NCBI GenBank assembly: GCA_947037025.1
Contig: CAMQSU010000003.1
Span: 662 to 64,661 of the forward strand
Direction of reading: 5' to 3'
Length of the DNA: 64,000 nt
Source: an uncultured Clostridia bacterium
GTDB lineage: Bacteria; Bacillota; Clostridia; Christensenellales; UBA3700
In this document: positions 2,208 through 15,035 of the stretch, one piece after another
Numbering within the stretch: the stretch's first letter is position 1
Layout of the letters: every line of letters begins with the position of its first letter
Program-made: the position numbers and the translations under genes
Notes under the pieces: model-generated
The model's input: the letters and a program-made list of their open reading frames with translations, nothing else
Databases searched by the model: none
Told to the model about the DNA's origin: nothing

Positions 2208-2265
2208 ATAAACAATGTTGCAATAATAAAATTTAGTAAAATTGCAGTACAAAAGGAGGATCTTT

Positions 2266-3879
2266 ATGAGCGATAAAGGGATAATACTATTAATTTTCGG
2301 CTTATATCTACTACTTATGGTAGGCATAGGTTTTATATTTTATAGAAAATCAATGTCATCATCAACCTACATGCTAGGCGGAAGAAGTCTAAATCCTTGG
2401 GTTACTGCTTTTTCAGCGCAAGCATCTGATATGAGCGGCTGGTTGCTTACAGGACTTCCGGGACTATGCTGTCTGGGCATTGCCGCTGGCAGTGTTGCAG
2501 GTATTAAGGAATCAATATTTACCGCAATCGGACTATTTATAGGTACCGCTGCTAACTGGATATTTGTAGCGAAGCGACTTAGAGTGTATACAGAGGTTGC
2601 CTCAAATTCAATCACTGTCCCAAGTTTCTTTGCAAACAGATTCGATGATAAAAAAGGTATCCTTCAAGCAATATCAGGAGTTGTAATATTATTCTTTTTC
2701 ACATTCTATGCTGCGTCAATGTTCTCAGCTGGAGCGAAAATGTTTGAAACAATATTTGGACTTGACTATCACTTAGCACTATTAATCGGTGCAAGCATTA
2801 TAGTTCTATATACATTATTAGGTGGATTTTTAGCAGTTTCATGGACTGATCTAATTCAAGGACTAATTATGTTTTTTGCACTTATTATCGTGCCAATCTT
2901 TGTTATGCGAGGGTTTAGTGACGCAGATTTCAGTGCTATGGGCGAGATAGGTAATGCTATTTCTAATTTACTGCCACAACAAGGCGAGGCGTTTACATGG
3001 ATAACTATTGCAACAGCACTTAGTTGGGGTCTTGGTTACTTTGGTATGCCGCACGTCCTTGTAAGATTTATGGCAACAAAAAACAAAAAAACAATTAAAC
3101 CTGCAGCAATAATAGCGTTAGTGTGGGTTGCAATTACAATGGCTTGTGCTATCCTTATAGGTATTGTAGGGCGAGTTGCAGTTGGAGATGGACTTACTGA
3201 TGCAACATCAGAAACAGTTTTCATGCAGTTAGTCATGAATTCATTTGGGCCAATTGTTGCGGGACTTTTGCTCTCTGCAATACTTGCAGCTATTATGTCA
3301 ACGGCAGATAGTCAGTTACTTGTTGCAAGTAGTTCGTTTGCAGAGGATATCTACAAAAAGCATCTACGCAAAAATGCAACAGATAAGGAAGTATTATTTG
3401 TATCAAGAATGACAATCATAGCAGTATCAGCAGTAGCAATATTGTTAGCACTTGATCCTGAGTCAAAAATATTTGAGCTTGTAAAATACGCATGGGGCGG
3501 ATTTGGAGCATCATTCGGGCCACTGGTAATATTCTCTCTATATTCAAAAAAAATAAAGTTCAGCGGAGCAGTAGCGTCAATCGTAACTGGTGCAGTAACT
3601 ACTATAGTATGGCGATATGGATTAAGTCACTTAGGCGGAATCTTCCTAATATACGAACTGATCCCTGGATTTATTCTATCATCCGCAGCATTATGGATAG
3701 GGTCATTATGTGACAAGCGTCCAATTAGTGATAAGATGGCAACAGATTATGATAATTTTAAAATAGCATTAAAAGATAAATCAGATGATAATAAGATTGA
3801 AGATGATCAAAATTCGGATTGCGATGTAGAATCGGATAATGAGCAAATGATGTCAGCTGATATTAATGCAAATAATTAA
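2266..3879 (+). CDS. putP: Sodium/proline symporter (SSS family)
   Basis: SAQASDMSGWLLTGLPG, WGLGYFGMPHVLVRFM, AAIMSTADSQLL; start placed at ATG after AGGAGG. Confidence 0.93.
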   Translation: MSDKGIILLIFGLYLLLMVGIGFIFYRKSMSSSTYMLGGRSLNPWVTAFSAQASDMSGWLLTGLPGLCCLGIAAGSVAGIKESIFTAIGLFIGTAANWIFVAKRLRVYTEVASNSITVPSFFANRFDDKKGILQAISGVVILFFFTFYAASMFSAGAKMFETIFGLDYHLALLIGASIIVLYTLLGGFLAVSWTDLIQGLIMFFALIIVPIFVMRGFSDADFSAMGEIGNAISNLLPQQGEAFTWITIATALSWGLGYFGMPHVLVRFMATKNKKTIKPAAIIALVWVAITMACAILIGIVGRVAVGDGLTDATSETVFMQLVMNSFGPIVAGLLLSAILAAIMSTADSQLLVASSSFAEDIYKKHLRKNATDKEVLFVSRMTIIAVSAVAILLALDPESKIFELVKYAWGGFGASFGPLVIFSLYSKKIKFSGAVASIVTGAVTTIVWRYGLSHLGGIFLIYELIPGFILSSAALWIGSLCDKRPISDKMATDYDNFKIALKDKSDDNKIEDDQNSDCDVESDNEQMMSADINANN

Positions 3880-3966
3880 CAAAAATTGCAACTTACGGCA
3901 TACATCAAATAGAGCAAGTATTAATTACTAGTATTAAAATGTAAGCTTAATAATTAATTGTAAAAT

Positions 3967-3995
3967 AAAAGATGACTTAACAGTCATTTTTTTTT
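3967..3995 (+). terminator. Intrinsic terminator of putP
   Basis: ATGACT-taac-AGTCAT plus long T-run. Confidence 0.75.
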
Positions 3996-4194
3996 GCGTT
4001 TTGACATACAATATTGTGGGCGGCAATAATTAGTGTATAGACTGAAATAGACTAATAAAGTTACTAGTTTCCGCATTTTGCTCTGCTGTATTATCAAATA
4101 CATGTATAAATTGTAGCTAAACTCTGCTAAATCAGGGCAAAACGATGTAATTTGCTACACTTATGTAAATTAATTGTAAATTTCAGTTTTCCTA

Positions 4195-4224
4195 TTGACA
4201 ATATTCAATTGCGTATGCTAGACT
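4195..4224 (+). promoter_or_regulatory. Sigma-A promoter driving a gene-less region
   Basis: TTGACA (4195-4200) and extended -10 TGcTAGACT (4216-4224), 18-bp spacer. Confidence 0.7.
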
Positions 4225-4736
4225 ATATGTAAGAAACAAACTCGCCATTCGTGAAAGACAAGTTTTCAGATAAAACTGAAATGTCTGAGTGGGGGATTGG
4301 CTTTAGAGGATACAAAATCTAAAGTTCTGATTACAAGTAGCAATGCTTGTGATAAATTATTTGATTACAAATGAGTTAGTAACCATATAGCGGACTTGTA
4401 AATTATTGCAAAATACGCAAATGTATGAAGGAACTCGATTAAGAGATAATGGGGAAAATCGTTCTCTTAAACAAAGGCAATACCAACTTGCAAAAACTGA
4501 GTGTTTTATAAACTAAGTTTAGCTTGGCAGTACTGTCTAACAAATCAAAGTGCTTTATTGCAAATGAAGTAAGACGTTATTGTAATTGTGAATAGTCACA
4601 AATAGAAAAACATCTTGCATCGAATTGAGTTTTTGATTAGTCGAATTCTCAAAATAAAAATAAAAATATTAATGTCAAATTAAAATTAAAGTGAACATAA
4701 AAATTGAACATGAAAATAAAATAAATAATTATAATT

Positions 4737-4904
4737 TTCGGCAACTGCCGATTAGACTGAGAGAGCTTGAGACGAAGTGACCGTAGCCCAAATGACTAGA
4801 GTTAGAGTCTAAGTGCATGCATTTTTTAAATTTGTATAGCGAAGTGACCGTAGTCCAAAAAGACAAGGGTTTGAGTCGAGGAGTCCGAGGGGCTTGCTCC
4901 AGCC
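4737..4904 (+). repeat. Structured domain copy 1 (two internal CGAAGTGACCGTAGCC..GAC..GGGTT.GAGTC units)
   Basis: Colinear similarity to 5134-5310. Confidence 0.85.
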
Positions 4905-5133
4905 TAAATGACAATACCTGTCATTATAAAATTCAATTAATATTACAATTAAAGTGATAATGGTAATTAAAATTTGAAGCAAAATATATTTGCAGAGTAT
5001 AAGGTGTAATAAAGAATGCGGATTTGTATCAAAAATGGTTCAAAAATATCGCTAATTACACATAAAACTTAACTCGATTCAGTGAGTATAGAAATAATCT
5101 ATATCACGCATTTATAATAAAGAAAGAGCAAAA

Positions 5134-5310
5134 TTCGGCAATTATGCCGTCAGACGGAGAGAGTTTGAGACGAAGTGAACGAGACCTACATGACGCAGGG
5201 CGAGTGTCTAAATGCCGTTGTAAACTGTATATTAGTTGCAATGAGCGAGTGACCGTAGCCTATATGACGACAGGGTTAGATTCGATGAGTCCGAGGGGCT
5301 TACTCCAGCC
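5134..5310 (+). repeat. Structured domain copy 2
   Basis: Shares CGGCA/TGCCG hairpin, GAGAGAGyTTGAGACGAAGTGA, GTGACCGTAG and GAGTCCGAGGGGCTTrCTCCAGCC with copy 1. Confidence 0.85.
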
Positions 5311-5552
5311 AAAAACAAATAAGTTAAGAATTATATAATAGAGGTTTTTCTCTAAGATAAGATTGTCGCGAAAATCTTATCAGATAATTAAAATAAAAAT
5401 ATAAGCATAGTTATAAATAATCTTCACAAGCTGACATGATTATGGCAGCATAATAATTAAGAAGCTTAACTATAACCAGCTTTTACAACTGAATATATAA
5501 GTTATTGATAATAGTAATTTGTTAATTACTGAAAATTTCAAGAAACGAAATA

Positions 5553-5594
5553 AAGATTACCCACAAGCATTATGCTTGTGGGTAATTTTGTTTT
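5553..5594. terminator. Strong, probably bidirectional intrinsic terminator
   Basis: ATTACCCACAAGCA-tta-TGCTTGTGGGTAAT perfect 14-bp stem, T-rich downstream and A-rich upstream. Confidence 0.88.
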
Positions 5595-5691
5595 ACACAT
5601 TAAATGCAGCTATTTTAACTGCGCATAATATGAATTTAGCATTTATATTTAAATTGATATGCTACTAAAAAAACTAGCAGTTTATATGATC

Positions 5692-5815
5692 ATTTTGCAC
5701 ATTTTCTACTTATTTTTGCTCATTTATTGCATGTTTTTTAGGTGTTTTTGCACGTTTTTTGCATGTTTTCTGCACGTTTTTTACGTGTTTCTACATGTTT
5801 ATTTAGCCATAATTT
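5692..5815 (-). repeat. Phased A-tract array (~10 units of ~11 bp, consensus AAAAAACRTGC on minus strand)
   Basis: Read directly; same consensus as 48453-48550. Confidence 0.8.
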
Positions 5816-5835
5816 TAGGCATTTCGGCTAATAAA

Positions 5836-6144
5836 TTATTTAGCTTTTGTTTTGCACTTAGTATGCATCATTTTATCTCCAACAGTTATATGCTCAGCTG
5901 CACATTTGTTGCTTTTGTTATGCATACATTCAGTGCTGCCGCACTCAATAAAAGTGTCGTCATTATCTGAGTAATCAAACTCAGCAGCAGTCTCCATATT
6001 GATAAACTCTTGCTCAATTACACCATTTTCACGGCGTAATTTTGTTGCACAATTACCATGTTTATCTACATTGATAATTCCTGCGCGGCAATGACAGCCT
6101 TCATTAAATTCACAGTTGCTTGTTGTACATTTTAATCCTTTCAT
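5836..6144 (-). CDS. Small Cys-rich protein with two DUF1540-like repeats
   Basis: Two C-x4-C-x2-N-x3/4-C-x-A-x2-I-x-V...C-x-T motifs; GGAGG RBS. Confidence 0.85.
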   Translation of the reverse strand: MKGLKCTTSNCEFNEGCHCRAGIINVDKHGNCATKLRRENGVIEQEFINMETAAEFDYSDNDDTFIECGSTECMHNKSNKCAAEHITVGDKMMHTKCKTKAK

Positions 6145-6389
6145 AATTCCTCCAATTTGTTTTATTATTAGCTATTTTCCATCATTTATTATACCTACAT
6201 TGGTGCAATAAATCATCATCTAATTGTGCCGCATTGCAACACCTTTAGATAGTAATAGCATGTACTTATACTTGCGTTTCATACATACTAATATATAAAT
6301 GTATCATTTTGCTTGACTTTAAGAGCAGAATGTAGCACAATGTTAGAATAAGTATGCAACACTATTTTGAGCAAATTAAAGGAGTTACA

Positions 6390-7061
6390 ATGAGAATTGA
6401 AATAATCAAACAACTGAGTCACACGGATAAGGTTTACCTTGCGAAAAATGACGAGGGAGATAAGGTCGTTCTAAAAAAATACAAAGATGTAAATTGTATG
6501 GCGTTAGAAACGACAATCCTTAATCAGTTGTCTATATCTGGCTACGCACCTAAAGTTTTAGAGCAAGGCGAAGACAGTATAATTTACGAGTATATAGAGG
6601 GTGATTCATTTTTAGATAAATATATAAGTTATTCTATGATGGATGACACGGAAGGACTTATTAGACTAGCAAACGAGCTTAGTATTTATCTGCAGATATT
6701 CTATTCGCTAGCAGAAGGGTACATCATTAAGGATATCAGTTTCAGCAATTTCATTATTAAAGATAGCAGATGTTACGGAGTTGATTACGATTCTGTTGCA
6801 GAGGGAATGCAGTATACAGATATCGGCGGAGTGGTGGCATTTGCAGTTAAGCATGTTGTAGGCGATATTCAGGCAAGTTTCCCGTTTATCCAACAAGTGC
6901 TTAAAAATTTCCGTATGCAGATGATAGATATTATTAATGATGTAAAGGAAGTATTGCAAAAAACCGAATCTCCGCTATATTATGAGCAAGTTTTAGCAGT
7001 TTTGATAATGATTGATGATGATATAATAGATGATATCGGATATGTGGAAAATAATTCATAA
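6390..7061 (+). CDS. Protein-kinase-like fold protein (RIO/APH-like)
   Basis: VVLKK, alphaC Glu, catalytic loop IKDISFSN, DYD in place of DFG; ATG after AAGGAG. Confidence 0.7.
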   Translation: MRIEIIKQLSHTDKVYLAKNDEGDKVVLKKYKDVNCMALETTILNQLSISGYAPKVLEQGEDSIIYEYIEGDSFLDKYISYSMMDDTEGLIRLANELSIYLQIFYSLAEGYIIKDISFSNFIIKDSRCYGVDYDSVAEGMQYTDIGGVVAFAVKHVVGDIQASFPFIQQVLKNFRMQMIDIINDVKEVLQKTESPLYYEQVLAVLIMIDDDIIDDIGYVENNS

Positions 7062-7368: not shown

Positions 7369-8273
7369 TTAATATTAAAAATATGCAGTATTTATGTTAT
7401 GGCAATTGCCTTGAGATTACAAACGGTAATGTTATGCTAAGGGTTACAACTGATGTTGGACCACGCATTATTTATTACGGCACTCAGGACGAAGACAACA
7501 TGATGTTTTGCGATGTTAATGATGATATTAATGTTCAAAACGAATATCTAGATACAAATTTCCAAAAGGGTGAGACTTGGCATATTTATGGCGGTCACAG
7601 ACTTTGGACTTCTCCAGAAAATCAAGGATCTTACTTCCCTGATAATTATCCAGTACAAGTAGAAATGCTTGATAATGGTGCAACTTTCTACGGAATTAAT
7701 GAAGTTACTAATGGCATAAGAAAAACAATCAAAATTACTATGGATGAGAGCGGTGTTGTAACAATTGACCACTCATTTACTAATTTTACAGAAAATCCAG
7801 TAACTATTGCTTTGTGGGCGTTATCAGTTATGAATAAAGGCGGACTTGCAGTTATACCTATGTCAACAGAAGATACAGGATTGCTTGCAAACAGAAACCT
7901 TGTGTTATGGCCATATACAAATGTCCGTGATGCTAGACTAACTATTGCGCAAAAGTTTTTCTCTCTGCAGCAGAATGTTAAATGTGATGGACCGCTTAAG
8001 ATAGGCGTTCTTAATACTGAAGGTTTAGTTTATTACATACGCGGCGGAAAAATGCTAGAGAAGAAATTTAATAAAGCAAACCGTGATGGCACTTATGTTG
8101 ATTACAGTTGCAGCACCGAGCTTTACACTAGCGAGCATTTTATAGAAGTTGAAGCAATATCAGAGCTTTTTGATATTGCTGCAAGTGCAACTGAGCATCA
8201 TGTAGAAGTTTGGACATTGCATGAAGGCGACAAGTTACAATCGGAAATCATGGAGATGATAAATGAAGGCTAA
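7365..8273 (+). CDS. Conserved hypothetical protein, galactose-mutarotase-like (DUF4380-like)
   Basis: VTTDVGPRII and YGGHRLWTSPE motifs; overlaps upstream stop. Confidence 0.65.
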   Translation: MINIKNMQYLCYGNCLEITNGNVMLRVTTDVGPRIIYYGTQDEDNMMFCDVNDDINVQNEYLDTNFQKGETWHIYGGHRLWTSPENQGSYFPDNYPVQVEMLDNGATFYGINEVTNGIRKTIKITMDESGVVTIDHSFTNFTENPVTIALWALSVMNKGGLAVIPMSTEDTGLLANRNLVLWPYTNVRDARLTIAQKFFSLQQNVKCDGPLKIGVLNTEGLVYYIRGGKMLEKKFNKANRDGTYVDYSCSTELYTSEHFIEVEAISELFDIAASATEHHVEVWTLHEGDKLQSEIMEMINEG

Positions 8274-9150
8274 ATTATCTAAAGTTGGTATAATCGTAGC
8301 AGTGCTAGTGTTGTCGTTGATGACGCTTGCAGGTTGCGTTTATGACTCAAAAAAGATAAATATTAACATTAAGGACGGCACTACTCCTTACGAGATAGCG
8401 GCTAAAGCTGCGTTGCCATCGGTAGCTAACCTTACAGTGTATAAGCTAGATGATGAGTTCAACGCCACCGCCGTTAACACATCCGTAGGATTAGTTATTG
8501 ATAATAATCATATACTAGTCAACAAAAGGGTTTTACCTGCAAGCAAGCTTTCTATAATACCTGTTAAAAATTATATTATGCAGGTTGAAGTCACTACAAA
8601 GGACGGCACATTAAAAACTTATAGATGCGAGCAATCTCCAGTAGAAATCTTCGCAAGAAAAAATGATGATTTAGGTTTAGTCTTGCTAAAGCTGCTAGAT
8701 GACCCAAACAGAGAATTAGTGCCGTGCGTGTTCGGAGATTCAGACACTCTAGCAGTTGGATCTAACACTCTAGCTGTATCGGTAAGGTCAGGTTTTGTCA
8801 GAACATTTGAGGTGCTTATATCAAATATGGAGTTAGTTCTTAATGGTTATAACGCAAATACTGGCACAATGTTTGGCGGTAATATCATTCCATCTAGTTT
8901 TTATACTTCAGGCAATCATAATAATGATAGTGTGGATGCTTACCGAGGTGATTTAGTGGAGGAAGATTTATATAATTATGCACCTTCTAGCGCGATACTA
9001 TTTGATATGCAAGGTAGAGTAGTAGGATTTAATTATTCTATGTTTGTAAATAACGATGATAATAACGATAACGTTGTAGGTAGTATAGGTTACGCTATCA
9101 AAGGAAATGCAATCGCATCAGGTCTTAGAGAAGGGGGGTATATCTTATGA
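8263..9150 (+). CDS. Lipoprotein with degenerate trypsin-like (S1C) domain
   Basis: LAGC lipobox; colinear with the downstream protease but catalytic His/Asp replaced. Confidence 0.7.
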   Translation: MKAKLSKVGIIVAVLVLSLMTLAGCVYDSKKININIKDGTTPYEIAAKAALPSVANLTVYKLDDEFNATAVNTSVGLVIDNNHILVNKRVLPASKLSIIPVKNYIMQVEVTTKDGTLKTYRCEQSPVEIFARKNDDLGLVLLKLLDDPNRELVPCVFGDSDTLAVGSNTLAVSVRSGFVRTFEVLISNMELVLNGYNANTGTMFGGNIIPSSFYTSGNHNNDSVDAYRGDLVEEDLYNYAPSSAILFDMQGRVVGFNYSMFVNNDDNNDNVVGSIGYAIKGNAIASGLREGGYIL

Positions 9151-14959: not shown

Positions 14960-15035
14960 GCCTTAATAGCTCAGTTGGTAGAGCATGCGGCTGTTAACCG
15001 CAGGGTCACAGGTTCGAGTCCTGTTTAAGGCGCCA
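14960..15035 (+). tRNA. tRNA-Asn (GTT)
   Basis: GCCTTAA/TTAAGGC acceptor stem, TGCGG-CTGTTAA-CCGCA anticodon arm, GGTTCGAGTCC T arm, encoded CCA. Confidence 0.97.

Follow-up and report, generated by a model that had tools for sequence, protein, structure and literature searches.

Two related elements, W1 and W2, were identified in a gap of about 2 kb (3880-5835) within a 64,000-nucleotide (nt) stretch of DNA from an uncultured Clostridia bacterium (GTDB lineage Bacteria; Bacillota; Clostridia; Christensenellales; UBA3700), which is taken from GenBank assembly GCA_947037025.1 (contig CAMQSU010000003.1, positions 662 to 64,661 of the forward strand) and is referred to below as the window. The reading that we favour, tentatively, is that W1 and W2 represent paralogous domains within a structured, lineage-restricted non-coding RNA that is read on the + strand and is probably a modular binding platform. 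That they form part of a functional structured RNA of this strand seems to us reasonably likely; the narrower proposal of a multivalent binding platform, which is our interpretation of the analysis, would on its own have to be called doubtful. The elements are a candidate for a structured RNA not described before, found in few species and unusual in its expandable-module design.

Paired elements at one locus in two species

The elements and the signals around them were located as follows.

4195-4224, + strand: sigma-70-like sequence, a putative promoter (TTGACA, 18 nt, TG-extended TAGACT; promoter scan)
4434-4470, + strand: upstream module of element 1, consisting of a CUCGAUUAAGAGA motif and, after it, a hairpin with AAGAGA/UCUCUU arms (stem by eye)
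4737-4908, + strand: element W1, 172 nt, 47% guanine plus cytosine (GC)
4909-5133, + strand: AT-rich spacer, 24% GC, holding the upstream module of element 2 (~5071-5110) and a promoter-like site (5089-5118)
5134-5312, + strand: element W2, 179 nt, 49% GC
5548-5594, no strand assigned: hairpin with 23-nt arms and T-runs on both sides (inverted repeat I1; + strand T-run by eye)

A first-pass annotation, made from the letters of the DNA alone, had described two copies with a common order of parts at this position, and this was borne out by MAFFT and blastn. W1 and W2 could be aligned end to end with a mean column identity of 83% (MAFFT), and the local blastn match reached 72.7% identity over 205 nt at an expect value (E) of 9e-24. 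Within each copy a module is duplicated, the block AGUGACCGUAG...GAC...GAGUC being present twice (repeat family D2). The parts named in the earlier description were all found. The 3' block is near-identical between W1 and W2 (repeat D3). The flanks and spacer had been called AT-rich and unrelated. They are indeed AT-rich, but not wholly unrelated, since the upstream module recurs (4432-4460 and 5071-5099, repeat D5) and positions 4660-4726 and 4923-4989 share a further similarity of 67% (blastn).

In its own genome (G000; 1.62 Mb in 63 contigs, 73.6% complete), the family was represented by W1 and W2 only, according to BLAST and two covariance models. A homologous locus in a congeneric genome (G004) was reached via synteny, starting from the protein encoded by the symporter gene to the left of the gap (81% identical). 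Both genomes share the gene order symporter, gap, DUF1540 and downstream genes, and the G004 gap contained two related elements, G4a and G4b, in the same orientation as in G000, with no further copies in G004. G4b measures 164 nt and has two modules. G4a measures 449 nt, and between its conserved 5' and 3' blocks 57-nt units follow one another head to tail (6.2 copies, 95% identity; L057 7095-7447 on contig G004:C3, minus strand relative to the window), five of which are near-identical. The known set comprises four elements from two species of one genus, two per genome, with a GC content of 42-49%, compared with 24-28% for flanks and spacer and 34.7% for the G000 genome. A dispersed repeat of the miniature inverted-repeat transposable element (MITE) or repetitive extragenic palindrome (REP) type, which the first-pass annotation had named as one outcome that would overturn its view, is ruled out because both genomes hold two copies only, both at one syntenic locus. 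Of the 25 inverted repeats listed, not one enclosed a copy at its ends, and no flanking direct repeat was seen.

No convincing gene was found in the gap, where the open reading frames (ORFs) of at least 40 amino acids (aa) are short overlapping frames only. Its left neighbour is a sodium:solute symporter gene (2242-3879, + strand, Pfam SSF) with a terminator of its own, read by eye as a hairpin at ~3972-3987 followed by a T-run, and its right neighbour is a convergent DUF1540 gene (5836-6144, minus strand). Both hexamers of the putative promoter at 4195-4224 recur in G004 at the syntenic position (7995-7967 of L057, minus strand), and the promoter block was the best-conserved part of the stretch aligned between the two genomes. 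The hairpin at 5548-5594, a block that is conserved in G004, was called on the minus strand by the terminator scan and is likely a terminator acting in both directions, for the RNA locus on the + strand and for DUF1540 converging on it. As the scans called no other terminator between the promoter and this hairpin, a single RNA of ~1.36 kb containing both domains is possible, and so are separate small RNAs. Judged from these sequence signals, transcription would run from 4195-4224 to 5548-5594, perhaps as one ~1.36 kb RNA and perhaps with subsequent processing.

Closing stem, modules and rod

In the proposed fold, a small 5' hairpin would come first, after which the 5' and 3' blocks of each element would pair as a long closing stem with purine-rich internal loops. 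This stem would enclose a duplicated module made up of UGACC, an A-rich (A/U)GAC motif and G(A)GUC. W1, W2 and G4b, with two modules each, would form imperfect rods of about 165-180 nt, and in G4a the same closing strands would hold an amplified module in 6.2 tandem copies of 57 nt. The parts of W1 and W2 were assigned as follows.

4738-4751, + strand: W1 P0, 5' hairpin of 5 base pairs with a 4-nt loop (minimum free energy, MFE, fold)
4759-4781, + strand: W1 closing stem, 5' strand, with P1a (4759-4761), P1b (4763-4768) and G 4769
4770-4781, + strand: the same strand continued, with bulged A 4770, P2 (4771-4773), purine loop GAAG (4774-4777) and P3 (4778-4781)
4782-4804, + strand: W1 module segment I1, with AGCCC, the A-rich AAAUGAC motif and GAGUU
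4805-4849, + strand: W1 junction helix J, pairing G, bulged A and GUC (4805-4809) with GACC (4846-4849), from MFE folding, RNAalifold and pair counts
4814-4841, + strand: W1 variable hairpin P5, enclosed by helix J
4850-4874, + strand: W1 module segment I2, with AGUCC, AAAAAGAC and GGGUU
4875-4899, + strand: W1 closing stem, 3' strand, with P3' (4875-4878), purine loop AGGA (4879-4882) and P2' (4883-4885)
4886-4899, + strand: the same strand continued, with C 4886, P1b' (4890-4895) and P1a' (4897-4899)
5136-5203, + strand: W2 P0 (5136-5149), 5' closing strand (5157-5179) and I1 (5180-5203)
5204-5305, + strand: W2 J and variable hairpin (5204-5254), I2 (5255-5280) and 3' closing strand (5281-5305)

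The closing stem is formed between the 5' block (GAGAGAG..GACGAAGUGAC) and the 3' block (GUCG..GUCCGAGGGGCUU.CUC), which were complementary in all four elements. For the 14 core pairs (P1a, P1b core, the G-C pair, P2 and P3), 55 of the 56 cells over the four elements held a standard pair, and for all 18 closing-stem pairs this was the case in 63 of 72. Two compensatory double changes were observed, one in P2 (G-C to U-A in G4b) and one in P3 (C-G to A-U in W2), and three more pairs had changed on one side via a wobble. The bulged A beside P2 is deleted in G4b, producing a continuous helix, and the 4-by-4 internal loop between P2 and P3 is almost entirely purine in every element. The closing strands of G4a lie 370 nt apart and still match.

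Within W1 and W2, the interior of the rod was modelled as three helices and would be read as such with some reserve. Helix Pa would pair AGCCC/GACCU of the first module with GGGUU of the second, and helix Pb would pair GAGUU/GGGCG of the first module with AGUCC/AGCCU of the second, leaving an internal loop of ~10 by 10 nt between them; helix J (G(N)GUC with GACC) would surround the variable hairpin. This rod model fits W1, W2 and G4b, and G4a, at 449 nt, does not fit it. For W1 and W2, 60 of 62 cells were paired (96.8%), compared with 23-55% when the partners were slid; ten pairs had changed, and eight of these were still paired in both copies. Among the one-sided changes seven of nine kept the pair (probability ~0.09 under a 50% chance expectation). 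A tool count on W1, W2 and G4b gave 94% paired cells and three pairs changed on both sides, and 24-51% with slid partners. Columns differing between W1 and W2 made up 18% of paired positions (11/62) and 41% of unpaired ones (39/96). In W2, the C-to-A change in UGAC of the first module is matched by a G-to-U change in GUC of the second module and not in the first module's own GUC, which favours outer closure over self-closed modules. The model also distinguished the strands, as 60 of the 62 cells pair on the + strand and 46 on the minus strand, and the MFE of the three two-module elements was lower on the + strand (-45.8 vs -40.3, -49.9 vs -38.2 and -40.2 vs -31.2 kcal/mol).

Measured against this model, the individual stems of the first-pass annotation were retained to different degrees. 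Its CGGCA/UGCCG hairpin is present in the copies, and a P0-like small hairpin opens all four elements with a sequence that differs between the species. The variable middle hairpin was likewise seen in the MFE folds of both copies. The GAGAGAGyUUGAGACGAAGUGA block is there as described, but the AGAC...GUCU stem said to enclose it does not hold as part of the main fold: it crosses the closing stem and could therefore exist only as an alternative fold or a pseudoknot (its counterpart in G4a, found by eye, is UGAC...GUCA). The local stem proposed for the terminal GAGU/rCUC sequences is missing from G4a, and CUC pairs instead with the 5' GAG in four of four elements. The U-G to U-A change cited there in support of this stem thus concerns a position that is unpaired in the long-range model. 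The broader claim that pairing is kept while the sequence diverges stands insofar as eight of the ten changed pairs remain paired, with several of the local stems replaced by long-range closure. Selection on RNA structure is plausible given a closing stem with compensatory changes across species, but the statistics are weak.

Distribution and competing explanations

The first-pass annotation had suggested building a covariance model from the two copies, and in searches of this kind the family was recovered at the homologous locus in G004 and in none of the other relatives searched. The first model (R1, from W1 and W2, run with strict filters) found nothing in 73 other family genomes and missed G004, which was later shown to carry the elements; in ~150 sampled genomes of the order it returned weak matches only (E at least 0.1), and the three that were inspected were chance alignments. 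A BLAST search with W1 against 40 relatives gave chance matches in the AT-rich middle only and also missed G004. The second model (R2, from W1, W2 and G4b, with laxer filters) was positive for G000 and G004 only among 40 genomes that included all nine of the genus, so that the family was seen in one of the eight other genus genomes and the remaining seven were without a match; among 150 genomes of the class it had no match. No blastn match to any of the four elements was found in the flanks of DUF1540 orthologues at 28 family loci (L065-L092). Pattern scans, which detect exact matches and would let diverged relatives escape, returned no match to two patterns in a viral contig collection, four matches in a genome contig collection (all in high-GC genomes and none fitting R1) and five in a metagenome contig collection, all of which were unrelated sequence on inspection.

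This narrow distribution is one of the points in favour of a serious rival, namely that the elements are a neutral relic, i.e., duplicated minisatellite-like DNA in a rearrangement-prone gap with no RNA function. Two species of a single genus carry the family, the left flank is a synteny break point in the genus, and several results of the structural analysis weigh against a functional RNA. The MFE z-scores on the + strand were ordinary (W1 -1.36, W2 -1.17, G4b -0.84). In the shuffle control, the observed score was reached in 38 of 500 shuffles for three sequences and in 255 of 500 for W1 and W2, which makes the latter uninformative. The slide controls are flattering because the structure was derived from the same sequences, the covariation is based on four related sequences, and most of the GAC/GUC helices are invariant with many alternative GAC/GUC pairings, which renders the interior ambiguous. 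The G4a array had no dominant fold, with periodic pair probabilities of at most 0.28, and its near-identical units are typical of recent slippage and could be neutral. Promoter-like sites just upstream of the single elements are out of register between the copies. With regard to a possible protein partner, Hfq was found in none of the five genus genomes searched, nor was CsrA (PF02599) in any of five (G000, G004, G001, G002 and G007), the latter negative to be read with G000 being only 73.6% complete and the CsrA control having been positive in just 3 of 14 known genomes.

Conversely, the neutral explanation does not readily account for islands of higher GC within AT-rich DNA, for closing strands that have remained complementary in four of four elements, twice through compensatory double changes and, in G4a, over a distance of 370 nt, or for paired columns that change less than unpaired ones. 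Locus, orientation, promoter and terminator have also been kept across two species whose symporters are only 81% identical. Weighing both sides, we regard a neutral relic as unlikely, and the reading as a lineage-restricted structured RNA as the better account.

Among functional alternatives, base-pairing regulatory small RNAs (sRNAs) would be trans-acting paralogues, or domains released from a long precursor, that pair with mRNAs through exposed A-rich/GAC or C-rich segments. Tandem paralogous sRNA genes are a known pattern, the sequence blocks here are conserved rather than covarying, and a cis-regulatory role is unlikely as no same-strand gene follows downstream. However, no + strand terminator was called directly after either element, and Hfq was found in none of the five genomes searched. 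The elements also exceed most seed-type sRNAs in size (170-449 nt) and, with their long closing stem, in degree of structure. We regard this as a rather improbable alternative. The GAGAGAG sequence resembles the AG-repeat bound by Bacillus Hfq, a lead that is moot here for the same lack of Hfq among the five genomes.

The first-pass annotation had leaned towards a tandem aptamer or ribozyme, in which each domain would bind a metabolite or tRNA or cleave itself, and a conserved fold with conserved unpaired purines in the internal loops, present as two domains in tandem, would suit such a function. Comparison with the 4227 models of Rfam 15, applied to the whole window at gathering score and to the locus at E up to 10, nevertheless gave no match over 4737-5312, and the sole match at gathering score in the window was a tRNA (14960-15032). 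At E 1, nothing was detected in 3850-4750 or in the G004 locus (L093), so that no riboswitch, T-box or ribozyme was found in either species at these thresholds, and no hammerhead-type core was recognized by direct reading. The elements do not lie in the 5' leader of a gene, as expected for a riboswitch: the upstream symporter gene is terminated, no + strand ORF of at least 40 aa lies between the elements and the hairpin terminator, and the next gene, DUF1540, is convergent. The sole + strand ORF of at least 40 aa listed between 5338 and the terminator (5519-5668) runs through the terminator hairpin. A module number of 2 to 6.2 is also hard to reconcile with a fixed ligand pocket or catalytic core. 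We consider aptamers or ribozymes quite improbable, and the T-loop or tRNA-binding idea attached to them found no backing, as neither the T-box model (RF00230) nor any tRNA-like Rfam model matched over the elements. By eye, the 3' block resembled the conserved region I (CR-I) of RNase P and domain IV of the signal recognition particle RNA; both candidates were rejected since no Rfam model scores there.

A 6S-like RNA would be a rod whose central bubble binds RNA polymerase, here in two paralogous copies. It would fit the two-module elements in their length of 164-179 nt, in the imperfect rod into which they are folded and in the ~10 by 10 nt internal loop between Pa and Pb. They resemble 6S RNA (RF00013) in size and in having two paralogues in one genome, and would do so in the rod closed by the two ends, as far as the ambiguous interior of the model allows. 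The Rfam 6S model had no match here at E up to 10, however, and a full-length 6S match was present on another contig of the same genome (G000:C4:60635-60833, L095; 35 bits at a cut-off of 46.4, E 1.2e-5), which is probably the genome's real 6S RNA. G4a, with 449 nt and 6.2 modules, shows a variability in module number that differs from 6S RNA, and the family is missing from seven of the eight other genus genomes, a very narrow distribution for an RNA that is near-universal to our knowledge. There is little chance that W1 and W2 are 6S-like.

The array in G4a recalls the antitoxin RNAs of type III toxin-antitoxin systems, in which a repeat RNA is cut into units that neutralize a toxin endoribonuclease. 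ToxI-type RNAs are arrays of short direct repeats with the toxin gene adjacent, and the head-to-tail arrangement of 6.2 near-identical 57-nt units in G4a (95% identity) is comparable. In contrast to ToxI, no toxin gene follows on the same strand, and the seven neighbouring proteins had no toxin match in PADLOC. PF13958 was found in neither of two genomes, a weak result because the control genomes were silent as well. Moreover, three of the four elements (W1, W2 and G4b) consist of just two diverged modules inside the closing stem, the units lie between conserved closing strands, and Tandem Repeats Finder reported no tandem array over W1 or W2. A type III antitoxin is accordingly a very slim prospect.

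Lastly, the unit length of 57 nt equals 3 x 19, and in G004 a minus-strand ORF of 134 aa with 19-residue repeats crosses the array (L057 7054-7458), which raised the possibility of a minus-strand gene for a repeat peptide. Every reading frame is interrupted in at least one of the four elements, with W2 and G4b having stops in every minus-strand frame; W1 and W2 differ by indels of 1, 1, 6, 1 and 2 nt, and their mismatches (20/13/17) are not 3-periodic. The 134-aa ORF had no Pfam-like, NCBIfam or PADLOC match, and of 8000 candidates scored out of a collection of 5.8 billion proteins none was related to it at E 0.001. Small ORFs were not conserved anywhere in the gap, where the best tblastn match (E 1e-4) lay over the element itself. 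The repeat peptide is close to refuted.

Possible function and relation to known systems

Among the functions considered for the structured RNA that we favour, a modular binding platform appears most likely because the ends stay closed as the module count varies between 2 and 6.2. On this view the RNA might act as a modular decoy or scaffold in which the repeated A-rich/GAC modules would be the binding sites, and the partner would more likely be a protein than another RNA. In its most far-reaching form, which we put forward as an unlikely extension, the proposal describes an expandable RNA class in which a conserved clamp of paired ends with purine-rich internal loops holds 2 to ~7 modules of 57-67 nt, each with an A-rich/GAC site, and which would serve as a decoy or scaffold of tunable valency for an RNA-binding protein in a lineage where neither Hfq nor CsrA was found.

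CsrB/RsmZ-type sRNAs sequester a protein by means of GGA repeats in hairpin loops, vary in unit number between relatives and occur as paralogues within a genome. The elements described here resemble them in having a repeated short unit of varying number (two in W1, W2 and G4b, 6.2 in G4a), in their paralogous copies and in the proposed logic of many binding sites on one RNA. They differ in the motif, which is A-rich with (A/U)GAC, GGA being present in only one internal loop of W1; in the result for CsrA, found in none of the five genus genomes searched; and in the placement of the modules inside a long closing stem of both ends.

Orphan structured-RNA candidates have been collected from long GC-rich intergenic regions (GC-IGRs) of AT-rich bacteria with the GC-IGR/DIMPL pipeline (PMC11109978), and further discovery papers follow the GC-rich intergenic approach (PMC8632094, PMC6429828, PMC8723152). 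The present locus shares with such candidates a long intergenic region, a GC content well above that of the surroundings and conserved pairing, and by the categories of PMC11109978 the element would be an sRNA, a protein-binding or a low-ranking candidate. No motif of this sequence or architecture was found in the portions of this literature consulted, a scope that leaves a prior listing possible in the supplementary motif lists.

If the locus is transcribed and functional, it would add a new structured bacterial RNA family and would point to an RNA-binding partner. The lineage has small genomes of low GC content, and the usual RNA chaperone and regulator proteins, Hfq and CsrA, were found in none of its genomes searched. 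It would also illustrate an evolutionary route with duplication of a module within a conserved closing stem, tandem duplication of the whole domain and, in one species, an approximately three-fold amplification of the module. Without transcription, the locus amounts to a repeat specific to this lineage. Since only two species are known to carry the family, its wider importance is modest in either case.

Flanking features and neighbouring genes

The putative promoter and the first element are separated by ~200-500 nt of poorly conserved sequence free of ORFs (including 4231-4434). A separate small RNA might be encoded there, or the leader region of a long non-coding transcript. A CUCGAUUAAGAGA-type motif with a hairpin (inverted repeat AAGAGA/TCTCTT) lies 45-300 nt upstream of all four elements, the G004 sites being on the minus strand of L057 at ~7550-7510, 7765-7725 and 6940-6890. 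The upstream module of element 1 matched G004 with 81% identity over 43 nt, and five related copies were aligned. For motif and hairpin, a role as operator or processing site is conceivable, as is an origin within the duplicated ancestral unit.

To the right of the gap, the gene block consists of DUF1540, a 235-aa protein, a helix-turn-helix (HTH) protein, a TTE1925-family mutarotase, a 295-aa protein and a trypsin-like peptidase; its first four genes were present in all genus members examined and are kept as the right flank by the other seven. Two of the conserved proteins in this region (6354-7061 and 8263-9150) have no Pfam family, and the 235-aa one has a faint thiamine-kinase-like match. 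The DNA downstream of DUF1540 is a synteny break point in the genus, and the two members inspected differ on the left of DUF1540 (L065, L066), with a surface-protein-like gene in G008 and a GpsA-like dehydrogenase gene in G002; symporter and RNA locus occur together only in G000 and G004. Between the terminator hairpin and the DUF1540 stop codon, ~6.5 copies of the 11-nt unit TTTTTGCAYGT extend over 5693-5805 (periods of 21 and 32 were also read). Scattered TGCAT motifs are found at the matching place in G004, and the repeats may bind a protein or belong to a 3' untranslated region.

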